A DNA stretch of 64,000 nt from Sulfurovum sp. (GTDB lineage: Bacteria > Campylobacterota > Campylobacteria > Campylobacterales > Sulfurovaceae). Under the pieces are notes generated by a model. The model was not told the DNA's origin and did not search any database. It was given only the letters and a program-made list of their open reading frames with translations. Made by a program: the position numbers and the translations under genes. This document shows, one piece after another, positions 7,223 to 44,266 of the stretch (within the stretch, counting starts at the first letter, position 1; the number at the start of each line of letters is the position of its first letter). Where the stretch lies: NCBI GenBank assembly GCA_027062365.1, contig JAMOTK010000066.1, forward strand, positions 12,782-76,781, in the 5' to 3' direction.

Positions 7223-8578
7223 ATGATAATAAAAAAATCACTTATATTACTACTTTTGATGTTACCTCTTGTTGCAAATACAAATAATTTAACATTAAAA
7301 CAAGCCATTAAAATACTTAAAAAAAATAACCTTGAGTTAAAAATAAGTAAATTTAATGAACAAATGAGAGCCTATGAGACAGCAGAGGCAAAGAGTCATA
7401 ACTATGGAAAAGCAGATATTTCTCTCACAGGAATGCGTTCTAATGATGCAGGAAATGTATTTGGATTTAAATTGCAAAGTAGAGAAGCTACTTTTGGAGA
7501 CTTTGGATTTGCCGAGTTTAACTCACAAAATCCAAATATTTTAAATGTCCAGCCTTCCGCATTAAATTATCCCGATGCACAAAACTATTATCAAACAAAG
7601 TTAAGTTATATGTTACCCCTATATACGGGAGGAAAACTAGCAGAATATGGACGTATTACAAAATCTATGGAACGTATGAGCCAGTATGATACACAAAAGA
7701 TATTGAATGCAAAAATATTTCAAACTAAAAAAGCGTTTTATGATATCTCATTGATAGAAAATTATATCTATAATCTTTCAAAGATGATAAAAAATATTCG
7801 ACATTTAGAAAATATCATAGGAAATATGAAAAAAGAAGGCTATGCCCAAGAGATAGATAAACTCGAAGTACAAGCTAGATTGGCAGAAGCACAAAGCATG
7901 TACAATCAAGCAAGTCTCAACAAAGATTTAGCCTATCAATTTCTTTCTTTTTTACTTAATGTTGAAGTACAATCTATTCATAAAGTAAGTGAAATGGCAC
8001 CTATGCCACGTGTCAATTTTGATGCTTTAGAAAGTAATAATTTAGATATTCAAAAAGCAAAATTAGGCGTAGAAATAACACAGATGGCAGTGGGCGTTGA
8101 GGAAGCAAATTATTTACCTACTGTAGGTGCTTTTGGTGAATATGCAAGTGCTGACAATACATTATGGAATGAATTTACAGACAAGGATTCTTATACTGTA
8201 GGGGTGCAGGTAAAATGGAATTTGTTTAATGGAGGTGCAGATGAAGCAAATCTTGAAAAAGCAAAGGTCAATCGTCTCAAAGTACAAAATCAATTGCTTT
8301 TAGCCAAATCTGGTGTTGCCTTACAAGTAAAAAAGCTTGAGACAGAAATACTTAGTAAAAATGCCGATGTAAAAAGTTATAAAAAGCAACTAAGATTTGC
8401 TAAAAAAGTATATGAAAATTATAGTGCACGTTATAAAGAAGGTATTGCTTCTATTACAGATGTTTTGATAAAACAGTCCAAAGAATTAGAGATACTACTT
8501 AAACTTTTAAGTGTTAAAAATACACGAAATACCAAAATATTTGAATTAAATAGTATATTAAATATAGGAGGAAAATAA
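7223..8578 (+). CDS. TolC-family outer-membrane efflux protein
   Basis: Signal peptide MIIKKSLILLLLMLPLVA and two repeated halves with the typical TolC coiled-coil/beta pattern (LTLKQAI..., NLFNGG...). I prefer the ATG at 7223, preceded by GGAG, over the track's TTG at 7211. Confidence 0.8.
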   Translation: MIIKKSLILLLLMLPLVANTNNLTLKQAIKILKKNNLELKISKFNEQMRAYETAEAKSHNYGKADISLTGMRSNDAGNVFGFKLQSREATFGDFGFAEFNSQNPNILNVQPSALNYPDAQNYYQTKLSYMLPLYTGGKLAEYGRITKSMERMSQYDTQKILNAKIFQTKKAFYDISLIENYIYNLSKMIKNIRHLENIIGNMKKEGYAQEIDKLEVQARLAEAQSMYNQASLNKDLAYQFLSFLLNVEVQSIHKVSEMAPMPRVNFDALESNNLDIQKAKLGVEITQMAVGVEEANYLPTVGAFGEYASADNTLWNEFTDKDSYTVGVQVKWNLFNGGADEANLEKAKVNRLKVQNQLLLAKSGVALQVKKLETEILSKNADVKSYKKQLRFAKKVYENYSARYKEGIASITDVLIKQSKELEILLKLLSVKNTRNTKIFELNSILNIGGK

Positions 8579-9375
8579 TGAAAATGTTGATACGATTCAC
8601 ACTGATTTTGCTGTGGATAACATCGCTTAATGCTGTGGAGATAAATCTAAGTGGTTCAGTTGTCTCAGACAATCAAAAGATGCTTACGAGTCGCTACATG
8701 GGATATGTAAAGCACATGGCTGTGAGTGAAGGGGATATTGTAAAAAAAGGTGATCTTATTTATGAAATTGATTCAAAAGAAATTGAATCAGCAGAGCGTC
8801 AAGTAGATTTGGCTATTTCACAAGCAAGATTGGCTTTACAAATGAATAAAAATCAATATAATAATGTATTGATTAATTTAGCACGTCATGAGAGACTTTA
8901 TAAAAAGAATATGGTTTCTAAGTATGAGTTTGAACAGTTACAACTAGCAGCAAAAAACCTAAAAGATATGGTAGAAATTGCAGAGCAACAAGCTAGTCAA
9001 GCATTGGCAAAAAAAGATGAAGTGTTAAATCAGTATAATTATTTGAAAATACATGCACCAAATGATGGTGTTATTGTTGAAAAACGATTGAATGAAGGAG
9101 AAATGGCAATACCTGGTATGCCAGCAGTGGTTTTGACAGATTTGAGTCAACTCAAAGTTGTTTCTGAACTGAGTGAAACACAATTGCGTCATATCTCTAT
9201 GGGAAAAATAGTTGAAATTTCTATTCCTTCTATTGGTTTTGTGACCAAAGGTAAGATTACAGCCATTGTGCCTAATTCCAATCCGATGACACATAAATTT
9301 AAAATTATTATGCGTTTAGATTCTAAAAGTAGTTCAGTATATCCTGGTATGTATGCCAAAATTCTTATTAAGTAG
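8578..9375 (+). CDS. Efflux RND periplasmic adaptor (MFP/HlyD family), short form
   Basis: Signal peptide, a barrel-sandwich motif (YVKHMAVSEGDIVKKGDLIYEID ... IHAPNDGVIVE), a coiled-coil hairpin and a start that overlaps the tolC stop (ATAATG). Confidence 0.8.
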   Translation: MKMLIRFTLILLWITSLNAVEINLSGSVVSDNQKMLTSRYMGYVKHMAVSEGDIVKKGDLIYEIDSKEIESAERQVDLAISQARLALQMNKNQYNNVLINLARHERLYKKNMVSKYEFEQLQLAAKNLKDMVEIAEQQASQALAKKDEVLNQYNYLKIHAPNDGVIVEKRLNEGEMAIPGMPAVVLTDLSQLKVVSELSETQLRHISMGKIVEISIPSIGFVTKGKITAIVPNSNPMTHKFKIIMRLDSKSSSVYPGMYAKILIK

Positions 9376-32400: not shown

Positions 32401-33372
32401 ATGAATTTTGTATATATACAATGGTTGTGGGCATTGCTTGTGCCTTTGGTACTCTTTGGATTTTTACTCTCCACCCATCACCGTAGCCTCTCTAGTATTT
32501 TTGAAGCAGACGTACTCAAACGTCTCATGGCTACGGATGAGAGTATGTCGATGAATCTTAGAAATAGTTTGTTTTTCATTGCTATTGTTTTGATGATTGT
32601 AGCGATGGCTCGTCCTGTGATGGAAAAAGGAGACAAAAAAGTAGAAGTAGAGGGGCTAACGCTTCTGTCTGCTTTGGATATATCGGGGTCTATGCGTAGT
32701 ACCGATGTCTATCCTAACCGTTTGGCATTTGCAAAACAAAAGATGTCTATGTTTTTTGATGCCATGCCTAGTGATGAGATAGGGGTTTTGGCATTTGCCT
32801 ATAGCCCTTTTGTCTTAGCACCTTTTTCTACAGACAAAGAGACGCTAAAGATGATAATAGATGGGGTCGATGACTCTTTTATCAATATGGGTTCAACAGA
32901 TTTTTCTGCTTTGGCTAGAGAAGCCAATACCGTATTAAAAGAGAAAAGTCCCAAAGTCTTGGTCTTATTTACCGATGGAGGAGATGAAGAGGCCATATCA
33001 GGCTTTGCCTCGATACTTAAAGAGAATGAAATAGACCTCTATGTAGTACTTGTAGGTACACTCAAAGGTTCTCCTGTCTTAGATAAAAATGGCAAACCTT
33101 TTTCTCAAAAGGATGGTACAATAGCCATCACCCAACGTAATGATGCCTTAGGAGAGTTAGCCAAAGAAAGTGGAGGGGCATTTGTAGTAGCTAGTCACGG
33201 AAAAGAGGATATAAGACAACTCGTATCCGTCATACGAAGCAAATATAAGAACCAACAACAAGGCGAAGTGATGGTCAAAGAACGTATAGAGTATTTTTAT
33301 TATCCTTTAGGATTGGGACTACTGTTTTTATTGATTTCATTTGCATCACTACCTAGAAGGAGAGCATCATGA
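32401..33372 (+). CDS. batB: VWA-domain membrane protein BatB
   Basis: TM helices, with MIDAS LSALDISGSM ... LFTDGGDE. Confidence 0.85.
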   Translation: MNFVYIQWLWALLVPLVLFGFLLSTHHRSLSSIFEADVLKRLMATDESMSMNLRNSLFFIAIVLMIVAMARPVMEKGDKKVEVEGLTLLSALDISGSMRSTDVYPNRLAFAKQKMSMFFDAMPSDEIGVLAFAYSPFVLAPFSTDKETLKMIIDGVDDSFINMGSTDFSALAREANTVLKEKSPKVLVLFTDGGDEEAISGFASILKENEIDLYVVLVGTLKGSPVLDKNGKPFSQKDGTIAITQRNDALGELAKESGGAFVVASHGKEDIRQLVSVIRSKYKNQQQGEVMVKERIEYFYYPLGLGLLFLLISFASLPRRRAS

Positions 33373-34181
33373 AAAAATTAGCAATACTTATATGGTTTGG
33401 AGGGTCTTTTTTGTACGCAGGATTGACCGATTTTAAGACCATAGAAGAAGCCAAACAAGCCTATGAAGCAAAAGAGTATGATAAGAGTGCCACTCTTCTT
33501 CAAAGCATTGATGCTAAGAGTCCACAAAAACACTATGATATTGGCAATGCTTTGTATAAAGATAAAAAATATAAAGAAGCGTTAGATGCCTATAGCCAAG
33601 CCAAAGGAATAGACGAAGCGACAAGATTACACAATATAGGAAATAGTTATTTTCAAAAAAAAGAGCTTGATAAAGCAATTGAGCATTATGAAAAATCTTT
33701 GAGTTTGAAAGAAGATGAAGATACAAAATTTAATCTTGAATTGGCAAAGAAAGCAAAGCAAAAAAAAGAAGAAGAGAAAAAGAAGCAAGAGCAAAAAGAG
33801 AAAGAGAAGAAAGACAAAGATAAAAAAGACGACAAAAAGAAAGACGATAAGAAAAAAGACGGCGATAAAAAAGATGACAAAAAGAAAGATGGCGACAAGA
33901 AAGATGATAAGAAAAAAGATGGCGATAAAAAAGACGATAAAAAAGATGGCGACAAAAAAGACAGTGACAAAAAAGACAGTGACAAAAAAGATGACAAAAA
34001 GGGTGATAAAGAAGGTAGCCAATCTAAAGAGCAGAAGCAAAAAAGCAAAGAAGAAAAGCTACAAGAACACGAACTCAAACGTCTCATGAAAAAAATGCAA
34101 AATGGAAAAACACCTACGATGATGTATCAAATGGGTGAAGAAAAAAAAGGTCAAAGGAGTGAAAATGCGAAACCTTGGTAA
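33369..34181 (+). CDS. batC: TPR-repeat protein BatC with a long Lys/Asp-rich repetitive tail
   Basis: TPR motifs (YDIGNALYKDKKYKEALDAYSQA; HNIGNSYFQKKELDKAIEHYEKSL), then KKDDKKKDGDKKDDKKKDGD... Confidence 0.8.
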   Translation: MKKLAILIWFGGSFLYAGLTDFKTIEEAKQAYEAKEYDKSATLLQSIDAKSPQKHYDIGNALYKDKKYKEALDAYSQAKGIDEATRLHNIGNSYFQKKELDKAIEHYEKSLSLKEDEDTKFNLELAKKAKQKKEEEKKKQEQKEKEKKDKDKKDDKKKDDKKKDGDKKDDKKKDGDKKDDKKKDGDKKDDKKDGDKKDSDKKDSDKKDDKKGDKEGSQSKEQKQKSKEEKLQEHELKRLMKKMQNGKTPTMMYQMGEEKKGQRSENAKPW

Positions 34182-35649
34182 TATAGTATGGGGTCTAATG
34201 TTAAGTGTAAGTTTAAACTATGCTGCGAGTGTGAGGGCTATGGTCGATACCACAGAAGTGGTCAAAGGCAATGCTGTAACTTTACGGATAGAAGCCAAAG
34301 GAAGTGCTGTGGTATTTCCAAAGATAGTGATGGTCGCTGATGCACGTGTCCAAGGTACTTCCACAAGTAGTAGCCAAAACTGGTCACTCATCAATGGTGC
34401 GATGAGCAATGAATCTTCTACAACTAAAAGCATACAATTTGTACCAAATCAGACTATGACCATCCCCGCTTATACGGTCACTATCGATGGGAAAGAGTAT
34501 AAAACAGACCCCATAGAGATAAAAATTGTCAAATCAACTGCACCCTCAAGCAAAGCCAATGCAGCTTTTGGATTGACATTAAAGAGTAGTAAAGACACAG
34601 TATATGTGGGTGAATCTTTTATGCTTACTGCGTATTTTTCTTTGCGTTCAGATATAGGAGCATCTCCACAAGTCAAATATACCCCACCTGTGTTGTCTGA
34701 TTTTTTGGTCACAGACGCAGGAGAAAAACCTGCGTATATCAAAGGAAATTATCAAATTCAAGAGATAGACTATATCGTTACAGCCCAAAAAGAGGGTAAC
34801 TTTACTGTCAATCCTGCTAGTGCTAAGGTGGGTATAGCAGACAGAAATGACCCTTTTGCTAGGATGATGTTTGCTCGTTTGAAATGGTATCAAACGGTAT
34901 CAAATGCTTTGAGTATAGAAGTACTTCCACAAGCTATAGATAGTGACCTCATAGGAGACTTTCGCATAGAGTCACATATTGATGCCCAAGAAGTCAATGC
35001 CAATAAACCTGTGAACCTCACTGTGAAGATAGAAGGAAATGGTAACCTAGAAGGCGTAGAATTTCCTAAATATGAGATAGATGGTGTCACCATTTATAGC
35101 GATGAAGCGAAGATAGATACCAAAGTAGTCAATGGTAAACTGTATAGTATCTATAGTAAAAGCTTTGCCTTTATCTCTGAAGAAGATTTTACGATACCAG
35201 AGCGTACCTTTTCACTCTATGACCTCAAAACAAAATCACTCAAATCACTCAAAATAGATAGCTATACTATCAAGATAAAAGCACTTAAAAAATCTAATGC
35301 TCATACTGTAGCACCTGTAGCAAAAGGTGTGGTACAGACCAATGAAACTGTGAATGAAGTTATCAAAGAAGTCATTGTAGAAAAAAATATTGAAGTGAAG
35401 TCTGTGGCATGGTGGATATTAGTCTTGGCATTTATATTGGGTATGTTCGTGATGTATCTTTTACGTTTTATCCCTCAAAGAAAAACCAAACCTTACAAAG
35501 AGTCCCAAGCCCTAAAGATACTCTACGGACACATCAGCGAAAGCACAGAGATAGAAGAAATGGTACGAAAGCTTTACGCTAAAAAGAATGGGGATACTTC
35601 TATAAAGATAGATAAAAAAGCACTTAAAGCAATGGTGGAACGTTTTTAG
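34165..35649 (+). CDS. batD: BatD (oxygen-tolerance) family protein
   Basis: Signal peptide MRNLGNIVWGLMLSVSLNYA, beta-rich repeats and a C-terminal TM (WWILVLAFILGMFVMYLL). I prefer the ATG at 34165 with its AAGGAG RBS over the track's 34135. Confidence 0.8.
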   Translation: MRNLGNIVWGLMLSVSLNYAASVRAMVDTTEVVKGNAVTLRIEAKGSAVVFPKIVMVADARVQGTSTSSSQNWSLINGAMSNESSTTKSIQFVPNQTMTIPAYTVTIDGKEYKTDPIEIKIVKSTAPSSKANAAFGLTLKSSKDTVYVGESFMLTAYFSLRSDIGASPQVKYTPPVLSDFLVTDAGEKPAYIKGNYQIQEIDYIVTAQKEGNFTVNPASAKVGIADRNDPFARMMFARLKWYQTVSNALSIEVLPQAIDSDLIGDFRIESHIDAQEVNANKPVNLTVKIEGNGNLEGVEFPKYEIDGVTIYSDEAKIDTKVVNGKLYSIYSKSFAFISEEDFTIPERTFSLYDLKTKSLKSLKIDSYTIKIKALKKSNAHTVAPVAKGVVQTNETVNEVIKEVIVEKNIEVKSVAWWILVLAFILGMFVMYLLRFIPQRKTKPYKESQALKILYGHISESTEIEEMVRKLYAKKNGDTSIKIDKKALKAMVERF

Positions 35650-35676
35650 GGGGGATACACTTTCCCCTAAAAGATA

Positions 35677-35831: not shown

Positions 35832-38771
35832 ATGTCAATAAATGAAAATACCATAGAACAAAAATTTATCAAAAAGCTAGAGGACTTAAAATATATCTAT
35901 CGCCAAGATATTCGTGATAAAAGTGCATTAGAACAAAACTTTCGAGAAAAATTTGAAGCCCTAAATAGAGTCAAGCTAAGCGATAATGAATTTTCAAGGC
36001 TTTTAGATGAGATTGTCAATCCTGATGTTTTTAAAACCTCTAAACTGCTAAGAGAAATCAACTCTTTTGAGCGAGAAGATGGTACGCCTTTACACTATAC
36101 ACTTGTTAATATCAAAAATTGGTGTAAAAACTCTTTTGAAGTGATTAATCAGCTTCGCATGAATACCAAAGATAGCTTTCATCGTTATGATGTGATTTTG
36201 CTTCTTAATGGTTTGCCACTGGTACAAATAGAGTTAAAGACTTTACAAATTAGCCCTCGTCGTGCGATGCAACAGATTATTGACTATAAAGAAGATGCAG
36301 GAAATGGATATGGCAATACGCTTCTTTCTTTTATGCAACTTTTTATGGTCTCAAATCAAAGTAATACTTACTATTTTTCAAATAATAATGCCAAACATTT
36401 TGCTTTTGATGCTGATGAGAAATTTTTACCCATCTATCAACATGCAGACAGAAAAAACAAAAAAATTGTAAATCTTGATGAATTTTGCGATGCGTTTTTA
36501 TGTAAATGTAAATTAGCTGAGATGATAAGCCGTTATATGGTTTTGGTTCAAAGTGAATCAAAGCTTATGATAATGCGACCGTATCAGATTTATGCTGTTG
36601 AGTCTATTATAGAGTGTATTGAAGACAACCGTGGAAATGGCTATATATGGCATACTACAGGAAGTGGTAAAACCCTCACTTCTTTTAAGGCTTCAACACT
36701 ATTAAAAGACAACGACAGGGTCAAAAAAGTACTTTTTGTAGTAGATAGAAAAGACCTTGACCGTCAAACACGAGAAGAGTTTAATAAATTTCAAGAAAAT
36801 TGTGTAGAAGAAAACACCAATACCCATACTTTAGTAGAGCGACTACTCTCCTCTGATTATGCTGATAAAGTCATAGTGACTACTATTCAAAAGTTGGGCT
36901 TAGCCTTAGATGCTACAAACAAAAACAACTATAAAGAAGCTTTAGCACCACTTGCTAATGAACGCATTGTTTTTATATTTGATGAGTGTCATAGAAGCCA
37001 ATTTGGTAAAAATCATACGGCTATAAAATCGTTTTTTCCTAACTCTCAACTTTTTGGCTTTACAGGTACGCCTATTTTTGACCAAAATGCACAAAGCTTG
37101 ATGATTGAAGGCGATGAGGCTTCCAAAAAGACCACCAAAGATATTTTTCAAAAAGAGCTACACAACTACACCATTACCCATGCCATAGACGATGGTAATG
37201 TGCTTCGTTTTCATATAGACTATTTTAAAGCAGAAGGTGAAAATGCTCCAAAACAAGGAGATAATCTATCAAGCAAAGCAGTAGCCGAAGCGATATTAGA
37301 AAAACATAATAAAGTCACAGCCCATAAAAAGTTTAATGCCATTCTTGCAACAAGTTCTATTAACCATGCTATAGAGTATTTTCATCATTTTAAAGAGCTT
37401 GAGCATGATTTAAATATTGCTTGTGTATTTTCTCCTCCTGCTGAGGGCAACAGAGACATCAAACAGTTACAAGAAGACTTACCCACAGAAGCCCAAGACA
37501 ACAAAATAGAACCCAATCTAAAAAAAGAGGCACTCAAAGAGATTATAGATGATTATAATACGCTTTTTAATACCAATCACAACTTAAACAATTTTGATGT
37601 CTATTACCAAGATATACAAACGCGTATTAAAAATCAAAAATATGCTAATGCTGATTTGGCTCATTCTGAAAAACTAGATATTGTTATTGTTGTAGATATG
37701 CTTTTGACGGGTTTTGATTCTAAGTTTTTAAATACTCTTTATGTAGATAAAAACCTAAACTATCACGGACTCATACAAGCCTTTTCACGAACCAATAGGG
37801 TATTAAACGATACAAAACCCTATGGAAACATCTTGGACTTTCGTTCACAACAAAATGCAGTCGATGAAGCCATTGCACTTTTTTCTGGCGAAGATACAAG
37901 TACGCCCAAAGAGATATGGCTAGTTGACCCAGCTCCTCAAACCATAGAGAAGTTTAAGATTGCTACCCAAAAGTTAGAAGACTTTATGACGGCTCATCAT
38001 TTAGAAAACCAACCCCATGAAATAGCCAACCTCAAAGGTGACGAAGCAAGAGCAGAGTTCATAAATACCTTCAAAGAGATACAACGCTTAAAAACACAGC
38101 TAGACCAACACAGCGATTTGAATACCCAACAGCTAGAAACCATAGAAGAGACACTCTCTACAGACAATTTAAGGGCGTTTAAATCTATGTACCTAGAAAC
38201 AGCCAAAAGACTACAAAACAAAAGAGACAAAGGCGAAGAAGTCTCGCCCCAAGTAGAACAGCTTGATTTTGAGTTTGTACTTTTTGCTTCTAGTTTGATT
38301 GATTACGATTATATCATGGGGCTAATTGCTAAATATTCAGGAGCAGAAACCACAAAGCAAAAGATGAGCAAAGCACAGCTCATAAGCCTACTAAAATCCA
38401 ATGCAAACATGATGGAAGAACAAGAAGATATGATAAACTATATCAATAGCCTTCAAATGGATATAGCGTTAAATGAAGACAGTATCAAAAACGGCTATGA
38501 AGCCTTTAAATCTAGTCAAAACAACGAAGAGCTAGAAGAGATGGCAAAAAATCATGGCTTAGAATACTCAAAACTTAAAGACTTTGTAGATAAAGTATTA
38601 AACAGACACATCTTTGACGGCGAAGACCTCACCGACCTACTAGAACCTCTAGGGCTTGGATGGAAAGCAAGAAGACTCAAAGAGTTAGCACTCATGGAAG
38701 AGCTGAGTCCACTACTTAAAAAGATGGCAAAGGGTAGAGCGTTGTCAGGATTGGAGGCTTATGATGAGTAG
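35832..38771 (+). CDS. hsdR: Type I restriction enzyme, R subunit
   Basis: 979 aa. N-terminal PD-(D/E)xK (YDVILLLNGLPLVQIELK), helicase motif I WHTTGSGKTLT, motif II FIFDECHRSQ, and later VVDMLLTGFDS and FSRTNR. Confidence 0.92.
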   Translation: MSINENTIEQKFIKKLEDLKYIYRQDIRDKSALEQNFREKFEALNRVKLSDNEFSRLLDEIVNPDVFKTSKLLREINSFEREDGTPLHYTLVNIKNWCKNSFEVINQLRMNTKDSFHRYDVILLLNGLPLVQIELKTLQISPRRAMQQIIDYKEDAGNGYGNTLLSFMQLFMVSNQSNTYYFSNNNAKHFAFDADEKFLPIYQHADRKNKKIVNLDEFCDAFLCKCKLAEMISRYMVLVQSESKLMIMRPYQIYAVESIIECIEDNRGNGYIWHTTGSGKTLTSFKASTLLKDNDRVKKVLFVVDRKDLDRQTREEFNKFQENCVEENTNTHTLVERLLSSDYADKVIVTTIQKLGLALDATNKNNYKEALAPLANERIVFIFDECHRSQFGKNHTAIKSFFPNSQLFGFTGTPIFDQNAQSLMIEGDEASKKTTKDIFQKELHNYTITHAIDDGNVLRFHIDYFKAEGENAPKQGDNLSSKAVAEAILEKHNKVTAHKKFNAILATSSINHAIEYFHHFKELEHDLNIACVFSPPAEGNRDIKQLQEDLPTEAQDNKIEPNLKKEALKEIIDDYNTLFNTNHNLNNFDVYYQDIQTRIKNQKYANADLAHSEKLDIVIVVDMLLTGFDSKFLNTLYVDKNLNYHGLIQAFSRTNRVLNDTKPYGNILDFRSQQNAVDEAIALFSGEDTSTPKEIWLVDPAPQTIEKFKIATQKLEDFMTAHHLENQPHEIANLKGDEARAEFINTFKEIQRLKTQLDQHSDLNTQQLETIEETLSTDNLRAFKSMYLETAKRLQNKRDKGEEVSPQVEQLDFEFVLFASSLIDYDYIMGLIAKYSGAETTKQKMSKAQLISLLKSNANMMEEQEDMINYINSLQMDIALNEDSIKNGYEAFKSSQNNEELEEMAKNHGLEYSKLKDFVDKVLNRHIFDGEDLTDLLEPLGLGWKARRLKELALMEELSPLLKKMAKGRALSGLEAYDE

Positions 38772-39960
38772 ATTAGTACCTAAACTTAGGTTTGAGGAGT
38801 TTAGTGGGGAGTGGGAGGAGAAACAAATTGGTGATTTTTTTACTGCTTTCAGTGGTGGAACTCCATCAAGTACTAATAAGAATTATTATGGTGGTAATAT
38901 TCCTTTTATCCGTTCAGCAGAAATTAATAAAGAAAAAACAGAATTATTTTTAACAAAAAAAGGACTTGATAATTCATCAGCAAAATATGTAAATAAAGGA
39001 GATGTTTTATATGCACTTTATGGTGCAAATAGTGGTGATGTAGGAGTTTCTAGGATAAAAGGAGCAATAAATCAAGCTATTTTATGTTTACATTCAAAAG
39101 AATCTAATCATAAATTTTTATTTTATTATTTAACAAAAGAAAAGAAAAATATAATTGATAAATATATTCAAGGAGGACAAGGAAACTTGTCTGGAAATAT
39201 TGTTAAATCTATTTCTATTTATCTTCCAACCCCAAAAGAACAAAAAAAAATCGCCAACACCCTAAGCTCTCTTGACAATCTCATAGAAGCACAAAGCAAA
39301 AAAGTAGAAGTTCTTAAAAAGCATAAAAAAGGCTTGATGCAAAAGCTTTTTCCTAAAGATGGGGAGAGATTGCCTGAATTTAGATTTGAGGGGTTTTTGG
39401 GGGATTGGGAGGAAATAAAGCTTGGAAGCATAGGTAAAGTATCTATGTGTAAAAGAATTTTGAAAGACCAAACGACTATATATGGAGATATACCTTTCTA
39501 TAAAATAGGTACTTTTGGAAAAGAAGCAGATGCTTATATTAGTAAAGAAATTTATGAAAAATATAAAAATAAATATTCGTTTCCTAAAAAAGGTGATATT
39601 TTAATATCAGCATCTGGAACAATAGGAAGGTTAGTAGTTTATAATGGAATAAATGCATATTTTCAAGATTCTAATATAGTTTGGATTGATAATAATGAAA
39701 TAATTATAAAAAATTCTTTTCTTTATTTTTGTTATAAAAATGTTAAATGGAATACAGATAATAATACTATTGCAAGATTATATAATGATAATCTAAGAAG
39801 TATGAAAATAAAAATTCCAAAATTAACCGAACAAAAAAAAATAGCCCAAACACTAAGCTCTCTTGACAATCTAATAGAAGCACAAAGCAAAAAAATAGAA
39901 ACACTTAAAGCACATAAAAAAGGCTTGATGCAACAGATGTTTGTGAGTGGGGAGGGTTAG
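38761..39960 (+). CDS. hsdS: Type I restriction enzyme, S (specificity) subunit with two target-recognition domains
   Basis: Two AT-rich variable TRDs separated by near-duplicate conserved helices: EQKKIANTLSSLDNLIEAQSKKVEVLKKHKKGLMQKLF and EQKKIAQTLSSLDNLIEAQSKKIETLKAHKKGLMQQMF. It overlaps the hsdR stop. Confidence 0.9.
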   Translation: MMSRLVPKLRFEEFSGEWEEKQIGDFFTAFSGGTPSSTNKNYYGGNIPFIRSAEINKEKTELFLTKKGLDNSSAKYVNKGDVLYALYGANSGDVGVSRIKGAINQAILCLHSKESNHKFLFYYLTKEKKNIIDKYIQGGQGNLSGNIVKSISIYLPTPKEQKKIANTLSSLDNLIEAQSKKVEVLKKHKKGLMQKLFPKDGERLPEFRFEGFLGDWEEIKLGSIGKVSMCKRILKDQTTIYGDIPFYKIGTFGKEADAYISKEIYEKYKNKYSFPKKGDILISASGTIGRLVVYNGINAYFQDSNIVWIDNNEIIIKNSFLYFCYKNVKWNTDNNTIARLYNDNLRSMKIKIPKLTEQKKIAQTLSSLDNLIEAQSKKIETLKAHKKGLMQQMFVSGEG

Positions 39961-40722
39961 ATGAGGTTGACATTTTTTGAAATAGAGGCGATTACAACAA
40001 GTTTTAAAGAGGTTTTTGGAAGTGAGAAGATTTATCTTTTTGGTTCTCGTGTGGATGATAGTGTAAAAGGTGGAGATATAGACCTTTATATTGTCACCCA
40101 AAACAAAGAAAATCTAAACAGCAAAAAGATAGACTTTTTAGTGAAGCTAAAAGAAAAAATAGGCAATCAAAAAATAGATGTCGTTATCTCACGAGATACA
40201 AATAGGACGATAGAACAAGATGCTATACATAATGGAGTAGAATTGGATACTAAAATATTAAAAATGCAGAAATATTTAAATGAGTGTAATAAACATAAAA
40301 TTAGAATAGAAAAATCTTATGCAAAAGTGAAAGAAATCTTTCCATTATCTGCACCAAGATACGAGAGCTTAAATGATGATGAGATTGAAGCAATAGACCA
40401 ATACCTTTTTAGATTTTCTAAACTTCAAGATATTTTAGGTAAAAGAGTGTTTAGAATGATTGTATCTGAGTATGAAGATAATATAAATGAATTGACTTTT
40501 TTGGATATATTGAATAGACTAGAAAAGATAGGTGTGTTAGACGATGGAAATATATGGAAAAAATTAAGAGATGTTAGAAATGATATTTCACATCAATACG
40601 ATGATGAAGCAGAAGAGATGGCAGAGGCTTTAAATAATATTTTTGCATACAAAACTGAGTTGATTGCAATTTTTGATAAAATAGAGATTTTTGTAAACAA
40701 AGGGTATAGCAATGAGCGATGA
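39961..40722 (+). CDS. Fusion protein: minimal nucleotidyltransferase (MntA-like) N-domain plus HEPN (HepT/DUF86-like) C-domain
   Basis: NTase motif LFGSRVDDSVKGGDIDLYI (GS-x10-DxD). HEPN motif W.KLRDVRNDISHQY (Rx4HxY; codons at 40576-40599). The ATG abuts the hsdS TAG, and the gene's 3' end overlaps hsdM by 11 nt. Confidence 0.7.
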   Translation: MRLTFFEIEAITTSFKEVFGSEKIYLFGSRVDDSVKGGDIDLYIVTQNKENLNSKKIDFLVKLKEKIGNQKIDVVISRDTNRTIEQDAIHNGVELDTKILKMQKYLNECNKHKIRIEKSYAKVKEIFPLSAPRYESLNDDEIEAIDQYLFRFSKLQDILGKRVFRMIVSEYEDNINELTFLDILNRLEKIGVLDDGNIWKKLRDVRNDISHQYDDEAEEMAEALNNIFAYKTELIAIFDKIEIFVNKGYSNER

Positions 40723-42319
40723 ACAAGAAAAAGAGTTAGGTACGATACTTTGGGCTATAGCCGATGATTTGCGAGGGGCGATGAATGCTGATGATTTTAG
40801 AGATTATATGCTCTCATTTTTGTTTTTGCGATACCTTTGTGACAACTATGAAGAAGCAGTCAAAAAAGAGTTAGGGTCTGATTATCCGATAGTGAGCGAA
40901 GAAGATAATCGTACGCCTTTGGCTGTTTGGTATGAAGAGAATGAAGAAGACATAAAACCTTTTGAAGAGCAGATGCGTAAAAAAGTGCATTATGTTATAG
41001 AGCCTAAGTTTTTATGGACTGCTATAGCAGAACTAGCAAGAACACAAAACTCTGCATTACTTAAGACTTTGGAAGAGGGATTTACCTATATAGAAAACGA
41101 ATCGTTTTCAACGGCGTTTGATGGACTGTTTTCAGAGATTAATTTGAGTTCTGAAAAGTTGGGAAAAGACTATGCCAAACGCAATGAAAAGCTTTGTAAG
41201 ATTATCACTAAAATCGCCGAGGGTATTGCAAAGTTTTCAAATGATGCTGATGTATTGGGTGATGCTTATGAGTATCTCATCGGTAAGTTTGCATCAGGTG
41301 CTGGAAAAAGTGCAGGAGAGTTTTATACCCCTCAACCCATCTCTACTATACTCTCTCGTATTGTCTCTCTTGATAGTCAAGACCCTAGCACAGGGTTGAA
41401 GAAAAAGCTCAATTGCGTGTTTGACTTTGCTTGTGGTTCGGGTTCGCTTTTGTTGAATGTGCGAAATCAGATGGGTAGTCATGGCATAGGTAAAATATAC
41501 GGTCAAGAGAAAAACATAACAACCTATAACCTCGCACGAATGAATATGCTTTTGCATGGGGTTAAAGACAGTGAATTTGAGATACATCATGGTGATTCTT
41601 TGCTCAATGAATGGGATGTCTTAGCAGAAGAAAACCCTGCTAAAAAGATGCACTTTGATGCTATTGTAGCAAATCCTCCTTTTTCTCTTCGTTATGACCC
41701 TAGCGATGAATTGGCAAAAGACTTTAGATTTAAAAATCACGGCTTAGCACCCAAATCGGCAGCTGATTTTGCCTTTTTGTTGCATGGCTTTCACTTTTTG
41801 GACAAAGAGGGGACGATGGCTATTATATTACCTCATGGTGTATTATTTCGTGGTGGGGCAGAAGCTCGTATCAGAACCAAGCTACTACAAGATGGGCATA
41901 TTGATACGGTGATAGGATTACCTGCTAAACTCTTTTTTTCTACGGGTATTCCTGTGTGTATATTGGTACTCAAAAAGTGTAAAAAGTCTGATGATGTGCT
42001 TTTTGTCAATGCCAGTGAGCATTTTACTAAAGGGAAGAAACAAAATCATTTAAGCCGTGATGATATAGATAAAATTGTAGATACTTATAGCCACAGAAAA
42101 GAAGAGATACGATATTCTCGTGCTGTGTCACTTGAAGAGATAGAGAAAAATGACTTTAATTTGAATATCTCTCGTTATGTTAGCACGGCAAAGCCTGAAG
42201 CTATTATTGATTTAGAGGAAGTGAATAGTAAATTAGGGAAGCTTGAAAAGGATATTAAGAAGTTTAGAGATGAGCATAATGTGTATTTAGCAGCGTTGGG
42301 ATTAGATATTTTAGCATAG
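40712..42319 (+). CDS. hsdM: Type I restriction enzyme, M subunit (N6-adenine DNA methyltransferase)
   Basis: HsdM N-terminal domain (LWAIADDLRG...FRDYMLSFLFLRYL), AdoMet motif FDFACGSGSLLL and catalytic IVANPPFS. Confidence 0.92.
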   Translation: MSDEQEKELGTILWAIADDLRGAMNADDFRDYMLSFLFLRYLCDNYEEAVKKELGSDYPIVSEEDNRTPLAVWYEENEEDIKPFEEQMRKKVHYVIEPKFLWTAIAELARTQNSALLKTLEEGFTYIENESFSTAFDGLFSEINLSSEKLGKDYAKRNEKLCKIITKIAEGIAKFSNDADVLGDAYEYLIGKFASGAGKSAGEFYTPQPISTILSRIVSLDSQDPSTGLKKKLNCVFDFACGSGSLLLNVRNQMGSHGIGKIYGQEKNITTYNLARMNMLLHGVKDSEFEIHHGDSLLNEWDVLAEENPAKKMHFDAIVANPPFSLRYDPSDELAKDFRFKNHGLAPKSAADFAFLLHGFHFLDKEGTMAIILPHGVLFRGGAEARIRTKLLQDGHIDTVIGLPAKLFFSTGIPVCILVLKKCKKSDDVLFVNASEHFTKGKKQNHLSRDDIDKIVDTYSHRKEEIRYSRAVSLEEIEKNDFNLNISRYVSTAKPEAIIDLEEVNSKLGKLEKDIKKFRDEHNVYLAALGLDILA

Positions 42320-42367: not shown

Positions 42368-44266
42368 ATGATTTATTATATTTACACCCAAAAAGAGTTG
42401 GTATTTGTTGAGAAAGTAAAAGAGTATTTACAAGAGCATCTAAAAGAAAAAGAGGTGGTGTATCTTTCTTTTGATGACTTGGATACTTTGGATATTAGCA
42501 AGGTTTCGCATCTGTTGGTTACAGGGTGCTTGGAGAAAATCAAGCGTCTTTTGACGATAGCTCATAAAAATACTTTGAGTGTGGGTATCATCCCTCTTTT
42601 GGCACAAAAGGAGCTGATACGTACCTTTGATTTACCTACAAAGACCAAAGAGGCTGTCGTCCTTGCACTTACACCGACACAAAAGCATATAGACTTACTT
42701 TATGCCAATGATATGATGGTACTTCAAGAAGTGGTCGTAGGAGATGCACCTCCTCTTGATAGTTTTGATTCAGCACTCAATGGCAAAACATATCTTGATA
42801 GAATCAAAATATTTTGGAAGACCCTTAGAAAAGTACAAACCCTCAGACATACCAAAATGAAAATCACCGATGCCAAAGAAAATGAGATAAAGTTTTCGGC
42901 TGTAGGGGTAGTAGGGGTAGAGTATCATAACCATACATTTGCATCTAAGCTACTGGCTTCTGGACTCTCTTCTAATGATGGTAAACTCTCTATCGTGATA
43001 CTCTCTCCTACGTCTATACTCCAATATATGGGGTATCTATTTAAGGCGTTGGTGTCTCATCTTACCCCTAAGGTTCTGCCTGATTCTGTAGGGGTTATGC
43101 GTTCTAGTCAGCTGTATATTGAGACCCAAAAGCCATTAGAAGTGCTAGTAGATTCGAGTACTTTGGGGCAAACACCTGTGCTACTAAAGGTCAAAGAAAA
43201 GGCATTGGCTTTGAGTGTGGGTACAGTATTTTGGGAACAACAAAACCAAAAAAATACACTCAAAGATAGTATAAAAGTAGATAATCTACCCTCTGATGAA
43301 GAGAGAGTCTCTTATTTGAGTGAGGCGATACCACTCTTTGCACATGCAAGTAAAGCACAGTATGCGTCACTCTTTAGTAATCTTAGAGAAGAGAGCCGAG
43401 TGACACAAAATTTTATGGTATTGCTCATCTTATCTACGATGTTGGCTACTTTTGGACTTTTTATTAACTCTTCTTCTATTATCATTGGGGCGATGATTTT
43501 AGCACCCTTGATGCAACCTATCGTGAGCCTTAGCATGGGAGTGCTTCGTCAAGACAGCACTTTGGAGATACATGGTGCGAAGAGTATCATGGTAGGGGTG
43601 TTGGTGGTACTAGCTACGTCAGCACTTTTGGCACTTTTTACCCCTATAGAGCGTCTTACTACAGAGATGATAGGACGTTTAAGCCCTACTATTTTAGACC
43701 TTTTTGTGGCGATTGTTTCAGGGGCTGCTGCTGCGTATGTAAAATCAAATGAAAAGATATTGGGTAGTCTAGCAGGGGTAGCCATAGCCGTGGCATTGGT
43801 CCCTCCTATCGCTGTGGCTGGTATAGGCTTGGGTTGGGGTGATTGGAGTATGTTTTCTATGGCTTTTTTACTCTTTATTACCAACCTTGTGGGCATTGTC
43901 CTCTCGGCTGCGTTTACCTTTGCTATCTTGGGCTTTTCTCCTTTGCACCTTGCCAAAAAAGGAATACTCACATGGATGATTATCGTCACTATCGTCTCTA
44001 TCCCACTCTATAGCTCTTTTGTAAAAATGGAAGAAAAAGTAGCCATCCAAACGACACTTTCCAATATGGAGTTTAGTATAGGAAGACATGAGATTATACT
44101 AACTAACATAGAAATTTGGCACCGTCAACCCCTCGATGAGATACACTGTGAAGTTATTAGTACAGGTATTCTTAATAGCGAAGAAAAAAAGATGCTCAAA
44201 GAAGCCATACTCAACAGTATAGGCAAAGAGTTTGTGTTGATTGTTACTTTTATGTATCGATTGTAA
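42368..44266 (+). CDS. DUF389-family integral membrane protein with a ~330-aa N-terminal lipid-kinase-like domain that lacks the GGDGT motif
   Basis: C-terminal region LILSTMLATFGLFINSSSIIIGAMILAPLMQPIVSLSMGV ... VALVPPIAVAGIGLG is typical of DUF389. The N-terminal layout parallels 53513-54193, but HLLVTGCLEKIKRLL sits where GGDGT would be. Confidence 0.6.
   Translation: MIYYIYTQKELVFVEKVKEYLQEHLKEKEVVYLSFDDLDTLDISKVSHLLVTGCLEKIKRLLTIAHKNTLSVGIIPLLAQKELIRTFDLPTKTKEAVVLALTPTQKHIDLLYANDMMVLQEVVVGDAPPLDSFDSALNGKTYLDRIKIFWKTLRKVQTLRHTKMKITDAKENEIKFSAVGVVGVEYHNHTFASKLLASGLSSNDGKLSIVILSPTSILQYMGYLFKALVSHLTPKVLPDSVGVMRSSQLYIETQKPLEVLVDSSTLGQTPVLLKVKEKALALSVGTVFWEQQNQKNTLKDSIKVDNLPSDEERVSYLSEAIPLFAHASKAQYASLFSNLREESRVTQNFMVLLILSTMLATFGLFINSSSIIIGAMILAPLMQPIVSLSMGVLRQDSTLEIHGAKSIMVGVLVVLATSALLALFTPIERLTTEMIGRLSPTILDLFVAIVSGAAAAYVKSNEKILGSLAGVAIAVALVPPIAVAGIGLGWGDWSMFSMAFLLFITNLVGIVLSAAFTFAILGFSPLHLAKKGILTWMIIVTIVSIPLYSSFVKMEEKVAIQTTLSNMEFSIGRHEIILTNIEIWHRQPLDEIHCEVISTGILNSEEKKMLKEAILNSIGKEFVLIVTFMYRL

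Follow-up and report, generated by a model that had tools for sequence, protein, structure and literature searches.

An MNT-HEPN fusion gene lies between hsdS and hsdM of a type I operon

We analysed a 64,000-nt stretch of Sulfurovum sp. contig JAMOTK010000066.1, hereafter the window, to which all coordinates without a locus prefix refer. It carries a type I restriction-modification (R-M) operon in the order hsdR-hsdS-X-hsdM, all genes co-directional, in which the gene here called X (39961-40722, + strand, ATG start) encodes a 253-aa protein with a minimal nucleotidyltransferase (MNT) domain at the N-terminus and a HEPN domain at the C-terminus, as established from the gene call, the homologues and the fold of an AF2 model compared by Foldseek. 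The first gene, hsdR (35832-38771, +), encodes a restriction subunit with an EcoR124_C-type C-terminal domain, recognised by Pfam (HSDR_N, ResIII/SWI2_SNF2, T1R_D3-like and EcoR124_C; E-values from 1e-33 to 2e-61) and by PADLOC (REase_I, 1092 bits). It is followed by hsdS (38761-39960, +), coding for a specificity subunit with two target-recognition domains (Pfam Methylase_S in two stretches, E 1.2e-57), which contains a 128-nt internal direct repeat of its conserved regions (39224-39351 and 39815-39942). The last gene, hsdM (40712-42319, +), encodes the methyltransferase subunit (Pfam N6_Mtase, E 5e-105, and HsdM_N). HsdR, HsdS and HsdM all have strong PADLOC type I matches, with Pfam and PADLOC E-values from 1e-57 to 0.

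The position of X between hsdS and hsdM and the tightness of the junctions agree with the original prediction made for this DNA. hsdR and hsdS overlap by 11 nt, the ATG of X (39961) abuts the hsdS stop codon TAG (39958-39960), and X overlaps hsdM by another 11 nt. A Shine-Dalgarno sequence for X, GGAGG (39951-39955, +; read from the sequence), is part of the hsdS 3' end and precedes the ATG by 5 nt. X is a single open reading frame (ORF) with neither an internal stop nor a conserved internal start. Upstream, a terminator-like hairpin that follows a Bat-like operon (35643-35673, +; pattern match only) probably bounds the hsd transcription unit on its 5' side. Because a pattern scan found no terminator between hsdS, X and hsdM, and because the promoter-like matches sought for a promoter of X's own are as frequent as expected from shuffled sequence (28 vs 27.9), hsdR, hsdS, X and hsdM would most simply be transcribed together, X being coupled in translation to both of its neighbours. 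Around X we found no insertion scars, insertion sequence elements or flanking repeats, the sole repeat being the normal internal one of hsdS. The GC content is 0.29 in X and 0.28 in hsdS, more AT-rich than hsdR (0.35), hsdM (0.38) or the whole window (0.34); this contrast is consistent with a history of the variable middle of the operon separate from that of its conserved ends.

The HEPN domain of X best matches the HI0074 type

The MNT domain spans residues 1-96 (39961-40248, +), as delimited by Pfam, Foldseek and its counterpart in two-gene relatives (see below), and matches Polbeta (PF18765, 37.9 bits, cut-off 26.9) and NTP_transf_2 (PF01909, 26.1 bits, cut-off 21). Its nucleotidyltransferase (NTase) motif reads G28-S29-x9-D39-I-D41 (40042-40083, +) and is invariant in 60 of 60 aligned sequences; the motif had been correctly spotted beforehand, with a spacer of ten residues that is in fact nine. 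D73 (40177-40179, +), likewise invariant in all 60, would be the third catalytic carboxylate, by its role in the Pol-beta NTase family. The HEPN domain occupies residues 97-253 (40249-40719, +) and is assigned to the HI0074/NTase_sub_bind type from profiles, Foldseek and the two-gene counterpart. It contains the RX4HXY motif R206-N-D-I-S-H211-Q-Y213 (40576-40599, +; from sequence and conservation), in which Y213 is the predicted AMP acceptor. The original prediction had read this motif as that of HepT/DUF86 HEPN RNases: the motif itself stands, and the type does not. Of the two Pfam profiles that it had named, NTP_transf_2 passes its cut-off as given above, and DUF86 (HepT) gives no match even at E<=1. 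Membership of DUF86/HepT was therefore rejected, the best matches being of the HI0074 type.

Among Protein Data Bank sequences, the sole significant match of the C-terminal domain is HI0074 (1jog; single-sequence E 6e-4, family-profile E 3e-5), in an alignment that pairs RDVRNDISHQYD of X with RDMRNITSHTYD. A search of the same sequences with the X profile, aimed at the Mg site (Q44/E47) of the Legionella pneumophila HEPN toxin (HEPN-Lpg), returned local matches around the RX4HXY helix only. The AF2 model, built with 48 homologues (mean pLDDT 87.4, pTM 0.67), shows an alpha/beta domain followed by a helical bundle, so that both folds anticipated for X are present. With TM-scores normalised to the target, Foldseek matches X to the L. 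pneumophila HEPN toxin (8xeh/8xdj, 0.60) and to HI0074 (1jog, 0.74), and its MNT domain to HI0073 (1no5, 0.74) and to the MNT antitoxin 8xeo (0.75); MntA of the Shewanella MntA-HepT complex (6m6v/7bxo) is matched as well. On the strength of these domain and fold matches, X is a genuine MNT-HEPN fusion with a HEPN domain of the HI0074 type. PADLOC has no model that spans the whole of X; its MNT-like model PDC-S09 (~100 aa) matches the MNT domain only (E 1.8e-6, 26 bits), too weakly to serve as a home for X, and was rejected as such.

The same architecture could be that of an enzyme that is no toxin at all. The aminoglycoside nucleotidyltransferases KNTase, AAD(9) and AadA also combine a Pol-beta NTase with a C-terminal helical domain in ~250-265 aa, and this helical domain has been classed as HEPN-derived by Anantharaman et al. 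(PMC3710099). If X were a domesticated nucleotidyltransferase of this kind, its HEPN domain would be a substrate-binding lobe and its target a small molecule, a sugar or a protein. AAD(9) (6sxj) and AadA are indeed among the top full-length Foldseek matches, and HEPN-M domains (PF08780/DUF86), described as 'occasionally fused to MNT', are in such fusions typically devoid of the catalytic residues (PMC3710099), being inactive and substrate-binding. The full-length matches are, however, poor (TM-score 0.25-0.29), and the helical domains of the aminoglycoside enzymes are without Rx4H, whereas X keeps its RX4HXY loop.

The X family probably descends from two-gene MNT/HEPN pairs

A word-indexed search returned at least 599 homologues of X, the best 120 of which share 52-91% identity with X and, with few exceptions, are full-length proteins (~245-265 aa); the most informative name that they carry is 'predicted nucleotidyltransferase'. 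In 60 aligned sequences, G28, S29, D39, D41, D73, C109, H112, D146, Q147, R151, Q156, D157 and W199 are invariant, and R206 (59/60), H211 (58/60) and Y213 (59/60) nearly so. Such retention of the RX4HXY residues, unlike what is seen in domesticated fusions, argues against a mere substrate-binding lobe.

A scan with one genome per species yielded 77 loci, 52 of them with the fused ORF. In about 16 remoter relatives (37-50% identity), MNT (97-99 aa) and HEPN (156-160 aa) are encoded by separate genes, which overlap by 4 nt (ATGA, GTGA or TTGA); these classic two-gene pairs carry the same motifs as X, a further point against domestication. When X is aligned with the split pairs, the C-terminus of the MNT protein (...NGVEL) continues straight into the N-terminus of the HEPN protein (DTKILKMQKYLNECNKHK...), with no linker inserted, and a rough neighbour-joining tree puts all the fused proteins together in one clade, relative to the pairs. 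When 1.84 billion cluster representatives were searched exhaustively, 2962 matched at E<=1e-3; among the best 150 of these 50%-identity cluster representatives, ~27 are fused (225-310 aa) and the rest are stand-alone HEPN (~155-165 aa) or MNT (~95-99 aa) proteins. The simplest reading of these sequences is that the family began with one frameshift-type fusion, where stop and start of an HI0073/HI0074-like pair overlap, and diversified thereafter. In six loci a fused gene adjoins a split MNT+HEPN pair in a tandem array (L016, L021, L039, L042, L043 and L047; e.g. L021:7176-8729).

X occupies a slot that usually holds PrrC

We compared the operon with 80 metagenomic loci fetched with the window HsdM (HsdM 70-87% identical). 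The end of hsdS and the start of hsdM are both present in 64 of them, which reduce to 53 operons after dereplication at 95% hsdM nucleotide identity. Throughout the 64 loci the order is hsdR-hsdS-slot-hsdM, and the slot is almost never empty. PrrC fills it in 33 of the 53 operons (354-399 aa; PADLOC PrrC E 1e-106 to 1e-138 over nearly the full length, Pfam AAA_13), RhuM (PADLOC PDC-S05) in nine and a YhcG/DUF1016 nuclease (PDC-S02) in four; PDC-M23A/B stands there together with PrrC in two, X is found in three, and three are practically empty (<100 bp). The description of X as lying in a 'PrrC-like position' is thus literally correct, and X is not absent from related hsd loci.

The operon with the closest HsdM is L082 (HsdM 87%, HsdR 82%), the slot of which holds PrrC. 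At the DNA level, homology between the window and L082 runs through hsdR and the conserved parts of hsdS to position 39955 and is back exactly at 40712, the ATG of hsdM. Because the homology breaks and resumes at these points, X and prrC are alternative cassettes, swapped gene for gene between shared conserved flanks. The two proteins are not versions of each other: X has no detectable sequence similarity to the slot PrrC of L082 and matches neither AAA_13 nor the PADLOC PrrC model, and we found no PrrC elsewhere in the 64-kb window.

The operons with X differ in what accompanies it. L009 and L093 have S-X-M, as in the window, and L083 has S-(167 aa)-DUF1828-X-M. The longest series, R-RhuM-S-RhuM-X-(174 aa)-DUF1828-PrrC-M, is that of L001, on the same contig as L087; since this operon holds X together with PrrC, the two can coexist and X is not a simple functional replacement of PrrC. 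In L004 (8756-11709), S-X is followed by a 115-aa N-terminal fragment of HsdM, then by RhuM and hsdM in full. With its hsdM 5' end duplicated, this locus seems to bear the scar that cassette exchange by recombination within hsdM should leave.

This placement bears on a reading in which X is a guard of the PrrC kind, the Hsd complex holding its RNase latent or setting its AMPylation and phage anti-restriction unleashing an abortive-infection backup. The precise swap in a slot that so often holds PrrC speaks for it, as do the coupling of X to hsdS and hsdM and a Campylobacterota sub-clade in which three of nine copies found independently of hsd (L001-L009) are hsd-embedded, far more than random placement would give; R-M-linked HEPN RNases are, moreover, a recognised theme (PMC3710099, PMC3506569). 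Against it, X has its own predicted masking domain and coexists with PrrC in L001/L087, and the slot behaves as a general cargo site, since RhuM, the YhcG nuclease and PDC-M23 occupy it too.

Several other accessory genes were seen in or near the slot. L146 (2925-8004), L155 and L160 carry PDC-M23A/B, that is, a 261-aa protein and a ~1080-aa Hachiman-like DEAD helicase, with PrrC between hsdS and hsdM. Between hsdR and hsdS lie a Ppl-like 889-aa ATPase and a 399-aa SLFN_AlbA_2 protein in L124 (1771-5621) and L128, and DUF3800 with a 185-aa ORF without family in L009 (4957-6188). The 174-aa ORF and the DUF1828 protein between X and PrrC map to L001:8806-10109 and are likewise listed for L083 and L117.

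Elsewhere in the window, hsdM is directly followed by a gene (42368-44266) for a 632-aa protein with a weak YegS_C/NAD-kinase-like N-terminal region and a DUF389 membrane domain. In the upstream Bat-like operon, a TPR-like protein (33369-34181) contains a long lysine/aspartate-rich low-complexity repeat (DKKKDDKKKDGDKKDDKK...), which also yields long spurious ORFs on both strands.

Most X-family genes lie outside R-M operons

The original prediction described the fusion as locked inside an R-M operon, which the distribution of the family does not bear out. In the species-representative genomes, hsd operons contain only 3 of the 52 fused copies (L001, L004 and L009), and close relatives are found between housekeeping genes, one of 74% identity between a Ppx-GppA gene and KARI and one of 71% identity between NAD-glutamate dehydrogenase and DnaG. 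Other copies of the Campylobacterota sub-clade follow CbiG and a corrin methylase and precede EPSP synthase, are flanked by RmuC and SIR2, or stand beside a tRNA synthetase gene. In the tree, hsd-embedded and non-embedded copies interleave. Both this distribution and the contexts of the closest relatives count against a guard tied to Hsd proteins. In ten Methylobacter/Methylococcaceae loci (L025, L027, L032, L033, L038, L048, L049, L051, L052 and L067) an X homologue of ~50% identity stands between a CDF cation-efflux gene and argJ, and in this group the fusion gene appears to be stably inherited beside housekeeping genes. Because close relatives persist alone in such settings, we infer that X must control its own activity, i.e. 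be self-sufficient, as a fused toxin-antitoxin would.

Within three genes of the family members, neighbours form 175 clusters, 149 of them singletons. Enzymes of sugar-nucleotide and polysaccharide metabolism make up the commonest neighbour families overall (Epimerase, GDP_Man_Dehyd, Polysacc_synt_2, Hexapep, NTP_transferase, glycosyltransferases and NeuB). A legionaminic/pseudaminic-acid-type cluster contains X in five Campylobacterota genomes, with overlaps of 1-8 nt. In one of these clusters (L046:1366-11120; X at 8001-8753), X is preceded by NeuB, an ORF, NeuC, a formyltransferase, a deacetylase, an ORF and a PtmE-like CBS-nucleotidyltransferase, and followed by a GFO/IDH/MocA oxidoreductase, a PseF/PtmB-like cytidylyltransferase and a PtmA-like SDR. 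X-family members of L024, L028, L040, L045, L013 and L031 are also in nonulosonic-acid, flagellin-modification or polysaccharide clusters. The sugar-cluster copies may either be hitch-hiking in hypervariable loci or have a real enzymatic role. Sugar-nucleotide and nonulosonic-acid neighbours in tightly packed orders such as PtmE-like / X / PtmF/PtmB-like would suit a domesticated enzyme; the contexts as a whole (CDF/argJ, DnaG, cobalamin genes, hsd) are too mixed for one metabolic role.

Promiscuous contexts of this kind would also be expected of a selfish passenger, i.e. an addiction cassette that hitch-hikes in, and stabilises, hypervariable loci such as R-M operons and glycan clusters and has no anti-phage function. 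The six tandem arrays and the cassette-recombination scars of L004 point the same way, and toxin-antitoxins are known to act as selfish elements (PMC2701414). The family is, however, absent from phages and essentially absent from plasmids: we found no match in the phage collection and one weak, MNT-only match in the plasmid collection. Genes embedded in defence systems have, in addition, a high validated rate of defence function (bioRxiv 10.1101/2024.01.29.577857), and a fused toxin-antitoxin cannot use the differential decay of two proteins, although the MNT domain of the fused FhepTA, described next, is the less stable part (PMC13000451).

Comparison with known systems

The nearest described parallel is FhepTA (SO_1440), a fused MNT-HEPN type VII toxin-antitoxin of the Shewanella oneidensis prophage CP4So (Yao et al., NAR 2026, PMC13000451); the likeness is drawn from its published description. 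The statement in the original prediction that the two domains are separate proteins in the known pairs is accordingly outdated, as FhepTA auto-oligoAMPylates its Tyr in a single chain. Like X, FhepTA is one polypeptide with MNT at its N-terminus and HEPN at its C-terminus, both motifs intact (GSx(9-10)DxD and RxxxxHxY), and has close relatives organised as two-gene pairs. Its own MNT domain tri-AMPylates its own Tyr240, which renders the full-length protein non-toxic, and the isolated HEPN domain is toxic (PMC13000451); the mechanism proposed for X below is the same. The FhepTA MNT domain additionally blocks HEPN dimerisation (PMC13000451). The two proteins differ in several respects. FhepTA has 276 aa, a HEPN domain 34% identical to HepT SO_3166, a hydrophobic linker of 3-5 residues and two regulatory HEPN cysteines, whereas X has an HI0074-type HEPN domain, no added linker and one conserved cysteine (C109); and FhepTA resides on a prophage or genomic island, in contrast to X in its hsd operon. 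Given the lack of any DUF86 match, the sequences suggest that the X fusion arose independently of FhepTA, in another HEPN-MNT lineage.

That lineage would be the one of HI0073/HI0074 and the L. pneumophila HEPN-MNT pair (1no5, 1jog, 8xdj/8xeh; PMC11586414), which give the best sequence and fold matches to the two domains of X. These share with X the RN-x-(S/T)H-x-Y loop with its AMP-acceptor Tyr and have the MNT gene upstream of the HEPN gene; they are two proteins in hetero-oligomers where X is one chain, at ~18-23% identity in structural alignments. Type VII HepT/MntA systems likewise consist of two adjacent genes, antitoxin upstream, whereas X is a single ORF with a split form only in its 37-50%-identity relatives. 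In HepT/HEPN toxins the RX4HXY loop offers its Tyr to MntA antitoxins, which oligo-AMPylate it (PMC7641770, PMC11586414), and the RX4HXY Tyr is also where the L. pneumophila HEPN toxin is AMPylated (PMC11586414). The acceptor role predicted for Y213 follows by analogy with HepT, HEPN-Lpg and FhepTA (PMC7641770, PMC11586414, PMC13000451). X thus has the architecture and the motifs of a type VII-like fused module (RX4HXY, NTase motif and both folds) and belongs neither to HepT/DUF86, nor to the NCBIfam MntA equivalog, nor to PrrC, nor does it have the linker and paired cysteines of FhepTA. Both X and FhepTA retain the HEPN residues typically lost in MNT-fused HEPN domains.

PrrC of the type Ic R-M system EcoprrI lies in the same slot as X, directly upstream of hsdM in this operon family, and is a latent RNase with a nuclease domain of the HEPN superfamily (Anantharaman et al., PMC3710099), so that the concept of a second-line suicide defence is common to both. 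The regulatory domain of PrrC is an ABC-ATPase (AAA_13) and its activity is masked by the Hsd complex, whereas X has an MNT domain and is presumably self-masked; and PrrC is almost exclusively embedded in type I R-M (bioRxiv 10.1101/2024.01.29.577857), whereas the X family is mostly non-embedded. Other embedded defence candidates (PADLOC PDC, Campylobacter rlo, RhuM) are, like X, accessory genes nested between hsd genes in the same orientation, and the operons related to that of X hold RhuM (PDC-S05), YhcG (PDC-S02), PDC-M23 and DUF3800 in the same or neighbouring slots. In C. jejuni hsd loci, rloA and rloB lie between hsdR and hsdS (PMC2928727). Many HEPN clades are R-M-linked, for which a PrrC-like multi-pronged defence has been proposed (PMC3710099; Makarova et al., PMC3506569), and 'guilt-by-embedding' has been formalised by Payne et al. 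for genes nested in type I R-M, BREX and DISARM (bioRxiv 10.1101/2024.01.29.577857).

A proposed self-masking module in an R-M accessory slot

We consider it probable, with appreciable room for doubt, that X is an autonomous, self-masking single-chain module like a type VII toxin-antitoxin, of the HI0073/HI0074 lineage, which a type I R-M operon has taken up in its accessory slot. What the sequences show is the domain architecture, the conserved residues, the origin by fusion, the replacement in the slot and the promiscuous contexts; AMPylation, RNase toxicity, trigger and any defence role we infer. An MNT-HEPN gene pair appears to have fused end to end at an ATGA stop/start overlap, with no linker added. 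In the resulting protein, D39, D41 and D73 would bind Mg-ATP, and Y213 would be the AMP acceptor modified by X's own MNT domain. AMPylated X should be inert, its HEPN ribonuclease kept latent, until AMPylation or the MNT domain is lost, e.g. when ATP runs low, the MNT domain is proteolysed or a phosphodiesterase acts; the freed RNase would then cleave cellular RNA and arrest growth. Recombination in conserved flanking DNA (hsdS 3' side, hsdM 5' side) would have brought X into a slot where this operon family usually carries PrrC, and X would since be co-transcribed and translationally coupled with hsdS and hsdM. Its most likely role in the operon would be generic, in second-line abortive infection or addiction, and carried along with the R-M system. 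X is probably not a physical partner of the Hsd complex in the manner of PrrC, and specific PrrC-like control by Hsd proteins is unlikely. Of the self-masked RNase guarding R-M that the original prediction put forward, self-masking is thus retained, by homology and no longer as a novelty, and Hsd-dependent guarding is disfavoured by the family distribution.

Several observations weigh against a self-masking toxin of the HI0074 lineage. The HEPN domain matches PF08780 (NTase_sub_bind; E 4.5e-6, 27.1 bits) and TIGR01987 (HI0074 family; E 4.5e-6, 26.7 bits) below their curated cut-offs of 31.8 and 55.8, respectively, a precomputed PF08780 match being nevertheless present in many X-family members; and with 27.8 bits against a cut-off of 60, X is not a member of NCBIfam MntA_antitoxin (NF047752). 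Near-absence from plasmids and phages is unusual for a mobile toxin-antitoxin, and the recurrent placement in sugar-nucleotide clusters could point to a non-toxin nucleotidyltransferase role. Finally, the substitutions R98A and H103A have a negligible effect on the RNase activity of the L. pneumophila HEPN toxin, for which an Mg site has been proposed as catalytic (PMC11586414); 'catalytic motif' may therefore be the wrong label for RX4HXY in X. By the same analogy this loop may be mainly a regulatory, acceptor loop, and as a speculation we list the invariant E108, C109, H112, D146, Q147, Q156 and D157 as candidate catalytic residues.

The alternatives fare less well. A selfish addiction cassette is an unlikely explanation of X, its contexts and tandem arrays being offset by the near-absence from mobile elements. 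It is also distinctly unlikely that X is a functional PrrC substitute, its activation wired to the state of the type I enzyme in such a way that phage anti-restriction leads to de-AMPylation and release of the RNase; the wiring could consist in coupling or stoichiometry with HsdS and HsdM, in ATP use by HsdR translocation or in direct binding, and the same low likelihood applies to the broader notion of a guard held latent by the Hsd complex. A domesticated nucleotidyltransferase we regard as quite improbable, in view of the near-invariant R206, H211 and Y213 and the low TM-scores to the aminoglycoside enzymes.

Significance

Fused MNT-HEPN toxin-antitoxins, R-M-linked HEPN RNases and 'guilt-by-embedding' are already in the literature, so that the general idea is not new, and nothing at the X locus overturns current views. 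What the locus adds is a clean natural experiment, in which one slot is filled gene for gene by PrrC, RhuM, a YhcG nuclease or an MNT-HEPN fusion. This series offers tractable, isogenic-like operons in which to ask whether toxins embedded in this way can stand in for one another as second-line defences or merely ride along. Should X after all substitute for PrrC, a type VII toxin-antitoxin would have been turned into an 'R-M guard', convergent and non-homologous. The recurrence of the family in nonulosonic-acid and glycan clusters merits attention in its own right. More broadly, the family suggests that single-chain type VII toxin-antitoxins have a second lineage, apparently independent, HI0074-type, linkerless and accounting for ~27 of the best 150 50%-identity clusters, which would be useful for asking how an antitoxin tethered 1:1 to its toxin is released.

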